From a phage, in the sequence record MZ956761.1: a stretch of DNA of 64,000 nt; one strand, 5' to 3'. Position 1 is the stretch's first letter. Every line of letters begins with the position of its first letter. Below are positions 10,089 to 12,503 of the stretch, piece after piece. A program made the position numbers and the translations under genes. A model generated the notes under the pieces. The model was not told the DNA's origin and did no database searches. It saw nothing but the letters and a program-made list of their open reading frames with translations.

Positions 10089-10161
10089 TGGGAATTAGCC
10101 AAGTTGGTAAGGCATAGCACTTTGACTGCTAGATGCAAAGGTTCGAGTCCTTTATTCCCAG
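10089..10161 (+). tRNA. tRNA-Gln (UUG)
   Basis: Acceptor tgggaat/attccca, T-loop ttcgagt, anticodon loop cTTTGAc. Confidence 0.85.
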
Positions 10162-10162
10162 C

Positions 10163-10249
10163 GCGAGAATGGTCAAATTGGTAAAGGCACAGCACTTAAA
10201 ATGCTGCGGAATGATTTCCTTGTGGGTTCGAGTCCCACTTCTCGCACCA
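10163..10249 (+). tRNA. tRNA-Leu (UAA), type II, CCA encoded
   Basis: Acceptor gcgagaa/ttctcgc, anticodon loop cTTAAAa, long variable arm. Confidence 0.85.
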
Positions 10250-10254
10250 AATTT

Positions 10255-10328
<74 letters not shown>

Positions 10329-10338
10329 ATTTAATCTA

Positions 10339-10412
10339 CTCCGTGTAGCTCAGTTTGGTAGAGCGCCTGATTTGGGATCAGGAGGTCCAAGGTTCAAATC
10401 CTTGTATGGAGA
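10339..10412 (+). tRNA. tRNA-Pro (UGG)
   Basis: Acceptor ctccgtg/tatggag (two G-U), anticodon loop tTTGGGa. Confidence 0.8.
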
Positions 10413-10414
10413 CT

Positions 10415-10504
10415 GGAGGCGTGGCAGAGTGGTTTAATGCACCGGTCTTGAAAACCGGCAGTCGCTCCGGCGACTCATAGGTTCAAATCCTATCGCCTCC
10501 GCCA
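10415..10504 (+). tRNA. tRNA-Ser (UGA), type II, CCA encoded
   Basis: Acceptor ggaggcg/cgcctcc, anticodon loop cTTGAAa, long variable arm. Confidence 0.85.
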
Positions 10505-10509
10505 GTTTT

Positions 10510-10585
10510 GCTGATTTAGCTCAGTAGGTAGAGCAACTCACTTGTAATGAGAAGGTCGGCGGTTCGATTCCGTCAATCAGCACCA
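10510..10585 (+). tRNA. tRNA-Thr (UGU), CCA encoded
   Basis: Acceptor gctgatt/aatcagc, anticodon loop cTTGTAa. Confidence 0.85.
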
Positions 10586-10586
10586 A

Positions 10587-10661
10587 GGCCCTGTAGCTGG
10601 AAGGTTCAAGCAAGCGACTCATAATCGCCAGATGGTGGTTCAATTCCACCCAGGGCCACCA
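10587..10661 (+). tRNA. tRNA with CAU anticodon (Ile by analogy with T4; Met not excluded)
   Basis: Acceptor ggccctg/cagggcc, anticodon loop cTCATAa. Confidence 0.8.
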
Positions 10662-10674
10662 AATTAAGAATTAA

Positions 10675-10761
10675 GGGGAGTTATCCCGTAGAGGTAGCGG
10701 TGTGGACTGTAAATCCATTGTCATTGCGACTCGGGTGGTTCGACTCCATCACTCCCCACCA
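10675..10761 (+). tRNA. tRNA-Tyr (GUA), type II, CCA encoded
   Basis: Acceptor ggggagt/actcccc, anticodon loop cTGTAAa, variable arm resembling bacterial tRNA-Tyr. Confidence 0.75.
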
Positions 10762-10765
10762 ATTT

Positions 10766-10840
10766 GGATGTGTAGCTCAATGGCAGAGCGATCGCCTGTT
10801 AAGCGATTGGTTATAGGTTCGAATCCTATCACGTCCGCCA
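10766..10840 (+). tRNA. tRNA-Asn (GUU), CCA encoded
   Basis: Acceptor ggatgtg/cacgtcc, anticodon stem atcgc/gcgat, loop cTGTTAa. Confidence 0.8.
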
Positions 10841-10954
10841 AATTTGTGACAACTGTCACATTAATATCTACTTGACGCGATTATAGGGGTTGAACTGATC
10901 ACTCTTCTCTTAATTTCGTGTGAAGACATCTTGATTGTTGGAGTAGGTATTAAT
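10841..10954 (+). ncRNA. Inter-tRNA spacer, possible small stable RNA
   Basis: 114-nt segment between tRNA-Asn and tRNA-His with hairpin tgtgac-aact-gtcaca at 10845-10860; tRNA processing would release it. Confidence 0.25.
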
Positions 10955-11030
10955 GTGGCCGTAGTTCAGTTGGTAGAACTCGAGATTGTGATTCTCGTAG
11001 TCATGGGTTCGACTCCCATCGGTCACCCCA
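10955..11030 (+). tRNA. tRNA-His (GUG), CCA encoded
   Basis: Acceptor gtggccg/cggtcac, anticodon stem cgaga/tctcg, loop tTGTGAt. Confidence 0.8.
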
Positions 11031-11034
11031 ATTA

Positions 11035-11110
11035 CGGGGCATAGCTCAGAAGGAAGAGCAAGGACCTTCTAAGTCCTAGGTCGTAGGTTCGATCCCTACT
11101 GCCTCGACCA
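11035..11110 (+). tRNA. tRNA-Arg (UCU), CCA encoded
   Basis: Acceptor cggggca/tgcctcg, anticodon loop cTTCTAa. Confidence 0.85.
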
Positions 11111-11126
11111 ATTAAGTGAGGAAAAT

Positions 11127-11477
11127 ATGAAAGGTAATGTTTATTTAGTAGTTCATGATTTAACATTCTATTTTAATCATAATGACACTGTTATTTCTGA
11201 ACGTGTAATTAATTTGCTTTATCAGCACGCAGATTATGTTTATGTCGAAAACGAATATGGTCATTGGCAATTTCTTAAAAATCGTTCATTTGGCTTAGAT
11301 GGTTACGAATACTTTGAACGTAAAGACCTTTTAGATAAAATTCCGTTATCTACACAATATCAAAATCACAAATCTTTATATAAATGCCGACCAATTCGAA
11401 ATGTTGAATCCGCGTATGAAGCAATTGATTTATGGCGTAAACGCCGTGAACAGATTGATGCTTTAAAAGAATATTAA
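11127..11477 (+). CDS. Hypothetical protein
   Basis: 116 aa ORF 17 nt after tRNA-Arg; RBS GAGGAAAA. Confidence 0.5.
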   Translation: MKGNVYLVVHDLTFYFNHNDTVISERVINLLYQHADYVYVENEYGHWQFLKNRSFGLDGYEYFERKDLLDKIPLSTQYQNHKSLYKCRPIRNVESAYEAIDLWRKRREQIDALKEY

Positions 11478-11579
11478 GAAACCGGGTCGCTACCGGTAAG
11501 TCGTCGGACTGATGTTCCCTGAGTAAGGAATTGTGTTAATAAATCTTTATGATTTGTTGATGCCCTCTTACATCACAGC

Positions 11580-11750
11580 AGAAACGGCGCACCGAATTAT
11601 CGATTCGAGGAAATATCTTTGCCATAAGCCGAGTAGCGTTTTTGACGGAACGTTCGGATATGGTCGAGATATGGCCTTTTAAAAATATTGAGTAGCGTCA
11701 ACTACTTAATAACCGGGTTCGAATCCCGGCGTTTCGTACAAACACTTGCC
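11580..11750 (+). ncRNA. Candidate structured RNA with tRNA-like T-arm and acceptor-like pairing
   Basis: ccggg-ttcgaat-cccgg T-arm at 11722-11738; cgtttcg can pair with gaaacg at 11584-11589; several hairpins; no long ORF. Confidence 0.3.
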
Positions 11751-11788
11751 TTAGCAGGTGGAACCCCGACAAGGTTGCCGCAAGGCTT

Positions 11789-11816
11789 AGCCCCGACCGA
11801 AAGGTTGGGGCTTTTT
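11789..11816 (+). terminator. Rho-independent terminator
   Basis: agccccgacc-gaaa-ggttggggct hairpin followed by TTTTT. Confidence 0.7.
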
Positions 11817-11862
11817 AGTATAAATAAGTATATTAAAACCACGAATTAAAACAGGAAATAAG

Positions 11863-12336
11863 ATGAAATCATATGCTCAATTTTTAAATGAAGCGGTGTT
11901 AAATGAAGCATCTAGCACCGAAATTCAAGCTGTTGCAAAAGCTGCCATTGCCGCGGGTAAATATTCCTATAAGGATGCTTCCGATGAATCACGATTCCAA
12001 TTTGCTCGTGATATGAAAGCCGAAGGATTTACAGGGAATGCAGTTAGTATGGCTTGGAAAAGTTTAGTTGCTACTGGAGCTGCTTTTGCAAAGGCTTCAG
12101 GTAAACCTGCTCCTAAGGCTGACCCTAAAGCAGCACAAGAAAAAAATATTGCTAAAGGAATTATCTCTAGGTATGAAGCAATTCTTAAAGAACTTTTGAT
12201 AATTAAGACCGAAGGCCAGAAACTTGCGCGAGCTCATAGTTTCAAAGATAATCCACATGCTCATGACCTAGAGTATGTTGAAGACATCCAAAAAATTATT
12301 AAAGACCGCATTTGGTCTGCTAAACAAATCAAATAA
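11863..12336 (+). CDS. Hypothetical protein with CTS-like N-terminus (MKSYAQFLNE)
   Basis: 157 aa; RBS AGGAAA; Ala/Lys-rich; N-terminal decapeptide resembles capsid targeting sequence. Confidence 0.5.
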   Translation: MKSYAQFLNEAVLNEASSTEIQAVAKAAIAAGKYSYKDASDESRFQFARDMKAEGFTGNAVSMAWKSLVATGAAFAKASGKPAPKADPKAAQEKNIAKGIISRYEAILKELLIIKTEGQKLARAHSFKDNPHAHDLEYVEDIQKIIKDRIWSAKQIK

Positions 12337-12343
12337 CATTCTT

Positions 12344-12371
12344 AGCCCCGACCGAAAGGTTGGGGCTTTTT
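12344..12371 (+). terminator. Rho-independent terminator (same sequence as 11789-11816)
   Basis: Identical hairpin plus T-tract. Confidence 0.7.
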
Positions 12372-12503
12372 GGTATCTAGGCCTTTCCGGGCCTCTCTAG
12401 GCATCATTTAGTTTATACCCTTTATAATATATTATCCTACCTTTTAATTGCCCCTCCTGACCCTAGAATTCCCTAAAAATTTTTAAAATTTTTTCACAAA
12501 ACG

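Follow-up and report, generated by a model that had tools for sequence, protein, structure and literature searches.

The species 1 and species 2 RNAs of T4-like phages, known since the 1970s, are cut from the tRNA-operon transcript, with processing of the p2Sp1 precursor by RNase. T4 mutants deleted for the tRNA region can grow on laboratory hosts. Several other non-decoding RNAs, among them YrlA, the tRNA-like structures of plant viruses, and mascRNA, copy the top half of tRNA and are handled by tRNA enzymes. Transcripts of the T4 genes for species 1 (rnaC) and species 2 (rnaD) have been detected by both Northern blot and RNA-seq (PMC9697503), the two RNAs are classed as late with their function given as unknown (PMC9697503; PMC3014915), and transcription of the T4 tRNA cluster was reported to stop after species 1 (PMC2330249). 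A search of the accessible literature found no functional study of rnaC or rnaD. The feature described below is itself already known, and the structural model is what the present analysis adds.

Identity and layout of the interval

The stretch of DNA analyzed here (64,000 nucleotides of record MZ956761.1, called the window) is from a Tequatrovirus, a T4-like phage. Base-for-base alignment of positions 11478 to 11862 to the annotated rnaD and rnaC genes of T4 (NC_000866), T2L (AJ880101), and RB10 showed that this interval carries the T-even stable RNAs rnaD and rnaC, the final genes of the tRNA operon. The interval was 100% identical to Escherichia phage ADUt and matched 803 phage records, and rnaD and rnaC annotations sit beneath the match in T2L, RB10, and T4. 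Element boundaries (Table 1) were transferred from these three annotated records, and the mature ends are therefore those of the database annotation. The rnaC sequence aligned over 139 of 139 nucleotides with 98.6% identity to T4 rnaC records and is the most distal member of the tRNA cluster, 3' of rnaD and 5' of the operon terminator. The rnaD sequence, directly 5' of rnaC, was 93.5% identical to T4 rnaD. As in T4, the order runs from tRNA-Arg to rnaD, a 6-nucleotide spacer, rnaC, trailer, and terminator, and the window contains no second copy.

The first-pass annotation had described the interval as a structured region without a long open reading frame (ORF) that might encode a stable small RNA, and had pointed to two stable RNAs near the T4 tRNA genes. 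This parallel was correct, and the identification with these known RNAs means that the interval is no longer a candidate for a new element. The T4 homologues are stable (PMC9697503). The interval holds two RNAs plus a trailer instead of one RNA. No ORF longer than 53 amino acids was found on either strand inside the interval. The minimum free energy (MFE) z-scores were -5.2 for rnaC, -3.1 for rnaD, and -4.1 for the trailer with the terminator, and none of 200 shuffles of each folded as well as the native sequence, placing the predicted folding of all three well beyond chance. Conservation was higher for rnaC than for rnaD, with at least 95% identity in 681 of 748 matching records versus 130 of 736. 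We consider it likely that the interval as a whole consists of species 2 (rnaD), species 1 (rnaC) as a non-decoding tRNA mimic with kissing loops, a trailer, and the operon terminator.

Table 1. Coordinates in the window of the elements in and around the rnaD/rnaC interval
Feature	Position	Strand	Basis or remark
rnaD (species 2 RNA), ~120 nt	~11474..11593	+	ends from T4, T2L, RB10 annotation
rnaD 5' hairpin ACCGG-GUCGCUA-CCGGU	11481..11497	+	RNAalifold
rnaD GUCGUCG, predicted long-range partner CGGCG(C)AC (11585-11592)	11500..11506	+	both strands invariant
GAAACG, in invariant 3' tail of rnaD	11581..11586	+	
rnaC (species 1 RNA), 139 nt, tRNA mimic	11600..11738	+	ends from T4 annotation
rnaC acceptor 5' strand CGAUUCG, partner CGUUUCG (11730-11736), two central U.U mismatches	11601..11607	+	compensatory changes
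rnaC long arm, replaces D and anticodon arms	11608..11677	+	covariation
Long arm, outermost (junction) helix AGG/CCU	11608-10 / 11675-77	+	UGG/CCA in PM2
Long arm, helix 2, AUAUCUU/GAGAUAU	11613-19 / 11666-72	+	
Long arm, helix 3, GCCAUA/UAUGGU	11621-26 / 11659-64	+	
Long arm, helix 4, CCGA/UCGG	11629-32 / 11654-57	+	
Long arm, innermost helix GCGUU/AACGU, terminal loop UUUGACGG	11636-40 / 11649-53	+	
Long-arm loop UUGACG, proposed kissing partner of CGUCAA (11696-11701)	11642..11647	+	covariation
rnaC 10-bp arm at variable-arm position, UAUUGAGUAG-[CGUCAA]-CUACUUAAUA	11686..11711	+	covariation
rnaC T arm CCGGG-UUCGAAU-CCCGG, 5-bp stem, 7-nt T-loop consensus	11713..11729	+	covariation
Discriminator-position U, then ACA	11737..11740	+	homologue tails
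Conserved 3' trailer, hairpins CACUUGC-CUUA-GCAGGUG (11743-11760) and GCC-GCAA-GGC	11739..11788	+	fold
tRNA-operon intrinsic terminator	11789..11817	+	GC-rich hairpin and T-run
Late promoter TATAAATA (11819-11826) and Shine-Dalgarno for ORF 11863-12336, outside the RNAs	11819..11862	+	

A tRNA-like top half in rnaC

rnaC folds as a tRNA mimic in which a 7-bp acceptor is stacked on a canonical 5-bp T arm. The homologue set that was compared contained 33 distinct rnaC sequences from at least 10 genera, its useful diversity coming from the GenBank phage collection, and a covariance model of our own scored the rnaC of the window at 163.3 bits (E = 1e-37). The T arm, which the first-pass annotation had recognized, occurs only once in the window. 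Together with the acceptor it makes up the standard 12-bp top half of tRNA: the 7-bp acceptor is contiguous with the 5-bp T stem, which carries a 7-nucleotide loop as in the tRNA family (RF00005), and both helices covary. In the covariance-model alignment of the 33 sequences, T arm cells were 100% paired, with pair 3 being either G-C (14 sequences) or U-A (17). Standard pairs accounted for only 72.7% of acceptor cells, and the two U.U mismatches were present in 31 of the 33 sequences. These U.U pairs are replaced by U-A and C-G in TG1 and by U-A and U-A in PM2, acceptor pair 1-72 changes from C-G to A-U in PM2, and pair 3-70 is A-U in 14 sequences, G-C in 18, and G-U in 1. The homologous 3' tail is UCA in TG1, and in the Marfavirus phages and PM2 an encoded CCA follows the U.

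Probable closure of the rnaC body by kissing loops

The body of rnaC has a single long, irregular arm in place of the D and anticodon arms, and a 10-bp arm at the site of the long variable arm of class II tRNAs; for both there was extensive covariation. Double changes were found in 15 of the 17 pairs of the middle helices of the long arm, in 4 of the 5 pairs of its inner helix, and in 9 of the 10 pairs of the 10-bp arm, the cells of which were 95.8% paired (33 sequences). A local hairpin, AGGA-AAUA-UCUU (11608-19), was considered and dropped: the AUAUCUU/GAGAUAU and AGG/CCU helices show compensatory changes (id4496, Karamvirus, PM2) and agree with the MFE fold. Overall, the comparative fold of rnaC is nearly the same as its MFE fold (-49.0 versus -50.6 kcal/mol).

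The loop of the long arm, UUGACG, is complementary to the CGUCAA loop of the 10-bp arm, and comparison of homologous sequences strongly indicates that the two form a 6-bp kissing interaction. Kissing-loop cells were 99.5% paired across the 33 distinct sequences. The loops read UUGAUG and CAUCAA in TG1 and UUGGCG and CGCCAA in the Marfavirus phages R3_1 and EI, and in PM2 both outer A-U pairs are lost together. Two pairs thus covary in independent lineages, with three to four of the six pairs being invariant and only three lineages varying. Since the kissing interaction would close the rnaC body, no anticodon-like loop would be exposed. The literature that we could search contained no description of this interaction.

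The complete fold was also evaluated in a MAFFT alignment of 27 distinct rnaC sequences that had not been fitted to any structure. In this alignment 92.1% of cells were paired and 30 of 53 pairs had double changes, compared to 37 to 47% paired in slid controls. None of 500 shuffles matched the observed values, a control that does not translate into a probability because the rnaC sequences share descent. The corresponding values for the covariance-model alignment of 33 distinct sequences were 91.7% paired and double changes in 36 of 53 pairs. A significant structural model with strong covariation therefore exists for this RNA, and a stable transcript is documented for T4 (PMC9697503); the lack of either had been named in the first-pass annotation as grounds for abandoning its proposal. 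That annotation had also pointed out a repeat, GAGTAGCGT. Both copies are present (11631-11639 and 11690-11698), although their number is about that expected by chance (~0.3 expected in 385 nt), and the repeat is not kept outside T4-type phages. We treat it as incidental.

Comparison of rnaC with known RNA families

A suggested Rfam covariance-model search, run at both gathering and relaxed thresholds, returned nothing beyond the 11 tRNAs of the window. For the tRNA family (RF00005) there was no match at the gathering score, the only match at E <= 10 was to tRNA-Sec, and the D and anticodon arms are absent. The match to tRNA-Sec (RF01852), the 13-bp acceptor/T stack of which (8/5 or 9/4) was not supported by the sequence family, reached 17 bits versus a gathering score of 47 (E = 3.5). 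Neither YrlA nor any other curated tRNA-like family reached its Rfam threshold in positions 11100 to 12450, where all of these matches had E > 1.

In its architecture rnaC resembles tmRNA in that its ends form a stack of acceptor and T arm, a long helix replaces the D and anticodon arms, and tertiary pairings (pseudoknots) shape the body. However, rnaC is much smaller and has neither G3.U70 nor a tag reading frame. ARAGORN found no tmRNA, and pair 3-70 is A-U or G-C in all but the single G-U sequence; rnaC is not a member of the tmRNA family. With the class II tRNAs (Ser, Leu, Tyr, and Sec) it shares the T-loop consensus, the 12-bp stack of acceptor and T arm, and the order of its parts, in which the acceptor strands enclose a body arm, then a long extra arm, and then the T arm. 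It differs from them in lacking a D arm and a 7-nucleotide anticodon loop, and in having a 10-bp extra arm with a loop that is paired to the loop of the body arm. In contrast to rnaC, YrlA ends in a Ro-binding stem instead of an acceptor stem, and the tRNA-like structures of plant viruses form the 3' ends of genomes.

rnaD, the trailer, and the terminator

We infer that rnaD is a separate, rod-like RNA in which the 5' hairpin and the mutually paired ends are conserved, whereas the central hairpin varies. RNAalifold analysis of 21 distinct rnaD sequences showed variation of the pair closing the 5' hairpin (A-U in 13, G-C in 6, and G-U in 2). The central part of rnaD in the window is of the T4 type and not of the T2 type. 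The upstream context is that of T2L: here and in T2L a 116-amino-acid ORF (11127-11477) lies between tRNA-Arg and rnaD, its TAA stop (11475-11477) overlapping the rnaD 5' end, whereas in T4 rnaD begins 2 nucleotides past tRNA-Arg. No signal was obtained for an intermolecular duplex between rnaD and rnaC (-52.2 kcal/mol, compared to -48.2 +/- 5.3 for shuffles, 71 of 300 of which were as good).

In the first trailer hairpin, phage 55 has CACUUAC...GUAGGUG, a double change from G-C to A-U. The strong terminator that had been noted at the end of the interval is a Rho-independent terminator, with a GC-rich 10-bp stem containing seven G-C pairs, a GAAA loop, and a TTTTT run. It is conserved in T4, T2L, and RB10, and an identical copy is present at 12344-12372. 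The downstream TATAAATA matches the T4 late-promoter consensus. The ORFs flanking the interval belong to PHROG families of unknown function and had no Pfam match.

Distribution of rnaC

Most genera that carry rnaC have no rnaD. In Karamvirus, Gelderlandvirus, Kagamiyamavirus, Winklervirus, Tegunavirus, Mosugukvirus, and others, rnaC is located between tRNA genes and rnaD is absent, the typical order there being tRNA-Trp, rnaC, and tRNA-Gly with spacers of 5 to 9 nucleotides. JS98 lacks rnaC and retains GAAACG and the trailer. Because of this phage, and because T4 tRNA-region deletions are viable, rnaC appears to be dispensable in at least some settings. Pattern scans for distant relatives gave 13 stretches in viral contigs, 16 in metagenome contigs that were T4-type copies, GC-rich chance matches, or tRNA matches, and 5 in genome contigs that were all ordinary tRNAs (21 to 25 bits). 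There was no sign of rnaC beyond T4-like phages in the scanned viral, metagenome, and genome contigs.

Alternative explanations for the interval

The first-pass annotation had paired CGTTTC of the CGTTTCG following the T arm with the upstream GAAACG, and both motifs are present. This pairing would give a single tRNA-like RNA of ~157 nt (11581-11737) with an acceptor formed by 11581-86 and 11730-35. Six Watson-Crick pairs are possible, and they form in the MFE structure when the entire unprocessed precursor (11474-11820) is folded, because the true acceptor stem has its two U.U mismatches, so an alternative fold of this kind at the precursor stage is possible. As the acceptor of a mature RNA, however, GAAACG provides only 6 bp and lies inside annotated rnaD, 5' of its mapped 3' end, and the conserved partner is instead CGATTCG at 11601-11607. 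The annotated mature 5' end in T4 likewise corresponds to 11600 and not to 11581. Changes in the 3' strand, namely C for U at position 70 and those seen in TG1 and PM2, are compensated in 11601-07 and not elsewhere, and rnaC homologues in more than eight genera keep the 3' strand with no rnaD or GAAACG upstream. Furthermore, JS98 retains GAAACG despite its lack of rnaC, and the motif occurs 20 times in the window. We therefore regard the ~157-nt RNA as very unlikely. It is extremely unlikely that the 3' 92 to 95 nt of rnaC are instead a decoding class II or selenocysteine-like tRNA, with an 8- to 9-bp acceptor formed by ACGGAACG(U) at 11645-53 and (G)CGUUUCGU. Some GenBank records do annotate tRNA-Met, tRNA-Lys, or tRNA-OTHER here, ARAGORN predicts a tRNA-Met(CAU) over this stretch for phage id4496 and a tRNA-Lys(UUU) for phage 55, the weak tRNA-Sec match points the same way, and 88.9% of the cells of this helix are pairable. 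Yet none of its pairs shows a double change, one is an A.C mismatch in 12 of 27 sequences, and neither TG1 nor the type-2 sequences can form the helix; this alternative acceptor was rejected since it shows no covariation. The supposed anticodon changes from Met to Lys between calls and is located in a linker, the tRNA would require segments occupied by helices with strong covariation, and in the window neither ARAGORN nor Rfam reports a tRNA at this site, the tRNA-Sec score being far under gathering.

The likelihood that the interval encodes small proteins is close to nil. A 49-amino-acid ORF (11533-11682) and a 53-amino-acid ORF (11688-11849) exist, and many phage records place a coding sequence ("hypothetical protein") over the match, but the ORFs have non-ATG starts and run through the junction of rnaD with rnaC and through the terminator. 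Indels of 1 and 2 nucleotides among the homologues would shift the frame, the substitutions are paired compensatory changes without a codon pattern, and the curated T4, T2L, and RB10 records annotate RNAs here. A further explanation is that rnaC and rnaD are cis-acting by-products without a function in trans, serving as punctuation or as a 3' cap for processing or protection of the tRNA operon. We think this unlikely, as we do the idea that the tRNA-like fold would merely recruit RNase P. In T4-type phages the RNAs are cotranscribed with the tRNAs and directly precede the terminator, processing signals that resemble tRNA are known elsewhere (mascRNA and the tRNA punctuation of mitochondria are examples), and JS98 manages without rnaC. 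On the other hand, rnaC is located mid-array in most other genera, where neither a cap nor extra punctuation is needed, and an acceptor/T minihelix suffices as a processing signal, yet the body helices and kissing loops covary and the rnaC loop sequences are nearly invariant. In addition, in T4 the RNAs accumulate as stable species (PMC9697503).

Possible functions of rnaC and rnaD

We infer that rnaC, as a tRNA mimic, does not decode. It is probably excised by host tRNA-maturation enzymes, because it resides in tRNA arrays, set off from its neighbors by tRNA-like spacers, and has kept the acceptor/T minihelix, and its fold probably confers stability. Our best guess from its shape and context is that rnaC is a processed, non-decoding tRNA decoy, a competitive look-alike that would occupy a tRNA-recognizing protein. 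The target may possibly be a host tRNA-targeting defense or toxin, or an enzyme that processes or modifies tRNA, a tentative suggestion that draws on the same shape and context. Defense systems that cut variable arms act on T-even phages and are countered by phage tRNAs (PMC13096335), which bears on the plausibility of a decoy only. Since phage tRNA loci are anti-defense loci (PMC13096335), a non-decoding tRNA look-alike would be a reasonable candidate for counter-defense.

More speculatively, rnaC could be the founder of a phage tRNA-mimic fold class that acts as a host-factor decoy, with rnaD being a second, independent host-range RNA, a proposal that we view as doubtful. Its candidate decoy targets, which we hold just as loosely, would be a defense nuclease or toxin that attacks tRNAs at the acceptor end or at a long variable arm, for example one of the PtuAB type (Septu, retron-Eco7). 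The role proposed for rnaD takes its hint from a convergent adaptive single-nucleotide polymorphism (SNP) reported in phage BW-1 (PMC12685909). On the RNA strand, we found this SNP to replace A by G within the central hairpin of rnaD, CACAG-UUUUA-CU(A>G)UG, where it restores a C-G pair and produces the T2L sequence. That an adaptive change restores structure in this hairpin suggests that rnaD matters to the phage.

The comparative model shows that rnaC is no oddity of T4: it is a tRNA mimic under structural constraint that has been conserved in many genera. The model accounts for the repeated mis-annotation of this region as tRNA-Met, tRNA-Lys, or "hypothetical protein," and it names exact nucleotides for mutation, namely those of the kissing loops, of the tandem U.U mismatches, and of the junction GG.

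Identity and layout of the region

A 501-nt query around the structured interval matched 803 phage records, nearly all of them from T4-like phages of Escherichia, Shigella or Yersinia and including a 100% match to Escherichia phage ADUt. Together with the 11 tRNA genes on the + strand, these matches indicate that the window is a segment of a Tequatrovirus genome with its tRNA cluster. Curated records annotate the matching DNA as rnaD ("species II RNA") and rnaC ("species I RNA") in T2L (AJ880101), as rnaD and rnaC in RB10, and as rnaC (70908-71046) and rnaD (71053-71171) in T4 (NC_000866). Late-RNA behaviour and Northern blot confirmation have been published for both RNAs (PMC9697503), the tRNA cluster transcript is a single precursor that ends after species I (PMC2330249), and a 2025 evolution study still labels both RNAs functionally unknown (PMC12685909). 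The feature is therefore the long-known rnaD/rnaC pair. The first-pass annotation, which suggested a stable small RNA here and pointed to a pair of stable RNAs in T4, was right about T4; its finding is real and its interpretation correct in outline.

The structured character that it assigned to the region was borne out by z-scores of -5.2, -3.1 and -4.1 for rnaC, rnaD and the trailer with terminator, none of 200 shuffles folding as well, and the two largest ORFs within it, of 49 and 53 aa, both lack an ATG start. Small ORFs across the region can be dismissed, since indels among the homologues would shift the frame and the substitutions come in pairs. The canonical T arm (CCGGG-TTCGAAT-CCCGG) is present and unique in the window, and the terminator lies where it was described. 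The repeat GAGTAGCGT does occur twice (11631-39 and 11690-98), but one 9-mer repeat in 385 nt is close to chance expectation and this one is lost in other genera. Identity to T4 was 98.6% for rnaC and 93.5% for rnaD, and at least 95% identity was retained by rnaC in 681 of 748 matching records and by rnaD in 130 of 736, so conservation across the phage collection is higher for rnaC than for rnaD.

Features of the tRNA cluster and the rnaD/rnaC region (window positions)
Feature	Position	Strand	Basis or remark
tRNA cluster (Gln, Leu, Gly, Pro, Ser, Thr, Met, Tyr, Asn, His, Arg)	10089-11110	+	ARAGORN, Rfam
rnaD	~11474-11593	+	T4 annotated ends carried through alignment
rnaD 5' hairpin, ACCGG-GUCGCUA-CCGGU	11481-97	+	Closing pair co-varies
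rnaD predicted pairing, GUCGUCG / CGGCG(C)AC	11500-06 / 11585-92	+	Both strands invariant
Spacer rnaD-rnaC, 6 nt		+	T4 ends via alignment
rnaC	11600-11738	+	T4 annotated ends carried through alignment
rnaC acceptor stem, CGAUUCG / CGUUUCG	11601-07 / 11730-36	+	Covariation
rnaC long arm: AGG/CCU; AUAUCUU/GAGAUAU; GCCAUA/UAUGGU; CCGA/UCGG; GCGUU/AACGU	Directly 3' of acceptor 5' strand		
rnaC 10-bp arm, after A-rich linker	11686-11711	+	Loop CGUCAA
rnaC T arm	11713-29	+	Loop UUCGAAU, T-loop consensus
Conserved trailer	11739-11788	+	T4 alignment
Terminator, hairpin and T-run	11789-11817	+	Sequence
TATAAATA	11819-26	+	Match to the T4 late-promoter consensus
Ribosome-binding site for ORF 11863-12336	3' of TATAAATA	+	

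Secondary structure of rnaC

The fold of rnaC was established by comparison. In a MAFFT alignment of 27 distinct sequences, made without structural fitting and with pairs counted for the final model, 92.1% of cells held standard pairs and 30 of 53 pairs showed changes on both sides; none of 500 shuffles reached any of the observed pairing measures, and sliding the partners by 1 to 3 columns lowered pairing to 37-47%. A covariance model built from this alignment scored the window rnaC at 163 bits and all homologues at 84-163 bits. The model-based alignment of 33 distinct sequences, which leans toward the covariance model where the MAFFT result does not, gave 91.7% of cells paired and double changes in 36 of 53 pairs. 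The comparative structure (-49.0 kcal/mol) lies close to the minimum free energy (MFE) fold (-50.6), so thermodynamics and comparison agree.

Within the 33-sequence set, acceptor pair 3-70 is mostly A-U (14 sequences) or G-C (18), and two central U.U mismatches are present in 31 of 33. Yersinia phage TG1 has U-A and C-G in their place, and Pectobacterium phage PM2 has two U-A pairs there as well as a change of C1-G72 to A-U. The 5-bp T stem is paired in every sequence, its third pair alternating between G-C and U-A, and is contiguous with the 7-bp acceptor stem, giving a 12-bp stack as in the top half of a tRNA. The long arm, with a GUA bulge in its CCGA/UCGG helix and the terminal loop UUUGACGG, changes AGG/CCU to UGG/CCA in PM2 and keeps its architecture in Gelderlandvirus, Moonvirus, Marfavirus and others with an almost unrelated sequence. 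The 10-bp arm, with double changes in 9 of 10 pairs, occupies the same place as the long variable arm of class II tRNAs. T4-annotated rnaC starts 1 nt 5' of the acceptor stem and ends 1 nt past the discriminator U (11737), which is followed by ACA; at the homologous positions TG1 has UCA, whereas Marfavirus phages and PM2 encode CCA. This fits a 3' end of tRNA type, which the CCA-adding enzyme could complete.

Two other acceptor stems were rejected. The first-pass annotation had paired GAAACG (11581-86) with CGTTTCG (11730-36). Both motifs are present as listed, but GAAACG occurs 20 times in the window, and a 6-nt complement about 145 nt away carries little weight. GAAACG belongs to the invariant 3' tail of rnaD, is missing in genera without rnaD and is present in phage JS98 without rnaC, and each change in the 3' strand is instead compensated at 11601-07. 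The MFE fold of the whole precursor does select GAAACG/CGUUUC, because the true acceptor stem contains the U.U mismatches, and on this modelling such a pairing may form transiently in the precursor of T4-type phages; the spacer hairpin that it needs is, however, not conserved. An 8-bp acceptor, ACGGAACG/CGUUUCGU, is the source of a weak Rfam tRNA-Sec match (17 bits) and of the ARAGORN "tRNA-Met" in phage id4496 and "tRNA-Lys" in phage 55, with matching GenBank annotations. It shows no double change, loses one of its pairs in 12 of 27 sequences, cannot form in TG1 or the type-2 group, and gives inconsistent anticodons.

In PQ824230 (1254-1348 of the stretch), OQ599310 (phage 55, 373-466 of the stretch), NC_054920 and many other public records, either the 3' two-thirds of rnaC is labelled tRNA-Met, tRNA-Lys or tRNA-OTHER, or "hypothetical protein" CDSs are drawn over rnaC and rnaD. 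The tRNA labels are reproduced by ARAGORN, but the comparative structure shows that these annotations are artefacts.

A predicted loop-loop interaction

The loops UUGACG (11642-47) and CGUCAA (11696-701) are exact reverse complements, and all six pairs between them are intact in 32 of 33 distinct sequences. They change together to UUGAUG/CAUCAA in TG1 and to UUGGCG/CGCCAA in Marfavirus phages R3_1 and EI, and in PM2 both outer A-U pairs are gone together. These pairs lay outside the covariance model, so the alignment was not fitted to them; the variation comes from three lineages, and 3 or 4 of the six pairs are invariant, depending on the alignment. A 6-bp kissing interaction is thus strongly indicated, on good if not overwhelming evidence, and would close the rnaC body with no anticodon-like element exposed. 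No description of it turned up in the literature that could be searched, which does not include the original structural papers.

Distribution and possible function of rnaC

rnaC is found in Tequatrovirus, Mosigvirus and some Dhakavirus, and BLAST identified diverged copies (68-86% identity) in Karamvirus, Kagamiyamavirus, Winklervirus, Tegunavirus, Gelderlandvirus, Moonvirus, Kanagawavirus, Mosugukvirus and Marfavirus, as well as in unclassified Citrobacter and Erwinia phages. The genomes with diverged copies lack rnaD, and their rnaC lies inside the tRNA array, typically between tRNA-Trp and tRNA-Gly, with spacers of 5-9 nt like those between tRNAs. JS98 conversely keeps rnaD and the trailer with rnaC cleanly deleted between two ACA(G/A)AA repeats (1195-1330 of the compared stretch); another Dhakavirus, LHE83, has both RNAs. 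rnaC is thus gained or lost as a unit, an independent module comparable in its behaviour to a tRNA gene. No second copy was found in the window, and when collections of viral, metagenome and bacterial genome sequences were scanned with patterns, all hits were either T4-type copies or ordinary tRNAs. In Kosakonia phage Kc304, an unannotated stretch of ~170 nt (~157-325) between tRNA-Ile and rnaC ends in ...GCUCCCACCA, a tRNA-like 3' end, and draws no ARAGORN call; the Kc304 rnaC has an atypical T loop, UGCAUUC.

From its place among tRNA genes, its tRNA-like spacing and its conserved minihelix, rnaC would be excised by host tRNA-processing machinery, and the compact fold would make it stable. 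A dimeric precursor of species 2 and species 1, cut by host RNases, would be consistent with such excision. Excised rnaC would act in trans, mimicking a tRNA without decoding and so engaging a protein that recognises tRNAs. Conservation of the body helices and loop sequences goes well past the requirements of a processing signal, and the RNA accumulates; on these grounds we tentatively favour this reading. The same observations speak against the main rival, a cis-acting processing or stability element, which we consider improbable. The remaining probability falls to functions other than these two. Recent work shows that the tRNA loci of T-even phages protect against defence nucleases whose target is the variable arm of tRNAs (PMC13096335), which makes a decoy role for rnaC plausible. 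With the acceptor stem corrected, a complete fold backed by covariation, the loop-loop interaction and the occurrence in many genera, the long-standing question of function becomes easier to test.

Structure and variation of rnaD

Among 21 distinct sequences, rnaD is nearly invariant in its first ~45 nt and last ~25 nt. The T4, RB, T2 and JS98 types of centre have dissimilar sequences, yet each forms a hairpin, and the helix flanking this variable centre shows double changes. A convergent SNP arose in three lines of phage BW-1 during adaptation to ECOR34 (PMC12685909). Its site, position 164264 in OR125554, falls within the T2-type central hairpin, where the change (A to G on the RNA strand) converts CACAG-UUUUA-CUAUG to CACAG-UUUUA-CUGUG, replacing a C.A mismatch with a C-G pair and giving the T2L sequence; that study does not describe it as repair of an rnaD hairpin. 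The SNP thus points, indirectly, to an effect of rnaD structure on fitness in some hosts. In the window, rnaD has a T4-type centre with no base equivalent to the SNP site.

Rfam detected no tRNA likeness in rnaD. In T4 and RB10 it ends in ...GCGCACCA followed by an AAUUA spacer; in other genera the identical spacer comes after the 3' ends of tRNAs that precede rnaC, and we speculate that rnaD may have descended from a tRNA. The two ends of rnaD are also alike (11476-11493, AGAAACCGGGUCGCUACC; 11578-11593, AGAAAC-GG--CGC-ACC), a likeness that could reflect a shared processing signal or an old duplication.

Flanking elements

A hairpin between rnaC and the terminator (CACUUGC-CUUA-GCAGGUG, 11743-11760) is kept in phage 55 with a G-C to A-U double change and survives in JS98 without rnaC; independently of rnaC, this hairpin may serve in processing or stability. 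The terminator is duplicated, with an identical 27-nt hairpin and T-run at 12344-12372, and the two copies flank a cassette of TATAAATA and a 157-aa ORF (11863-12336; phrog_2280, unknown function). T4, T2L and RB10 have a single terminator, immediately after which comes the sequence found downstream of the second copy in the window, and BW-1 has the same duplicated layout; the cassette looks like an insertion by recombination at the stem-loop. A 116-aa ORF (11127-11477; phrog_3355), for which no Pfam match was found, lies between tRNA-Arg and rnaD, as in T2L ("trna.2"), and its TAA stop overlaps the first rnaD nucleotides. With this gene order, the rnaD 5' end in the window must be cut from an mRNA-containing precursor, not made by tRNA-Arg 3' processing as in T4. 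Farther upstream, 10841-11030 comprises a 114-nt non-coding gap, which begins with the palindrome GTGACAACTGTCAC, and then tRNA-His, a gene that T4, T2L and RB10 do not have at that position.
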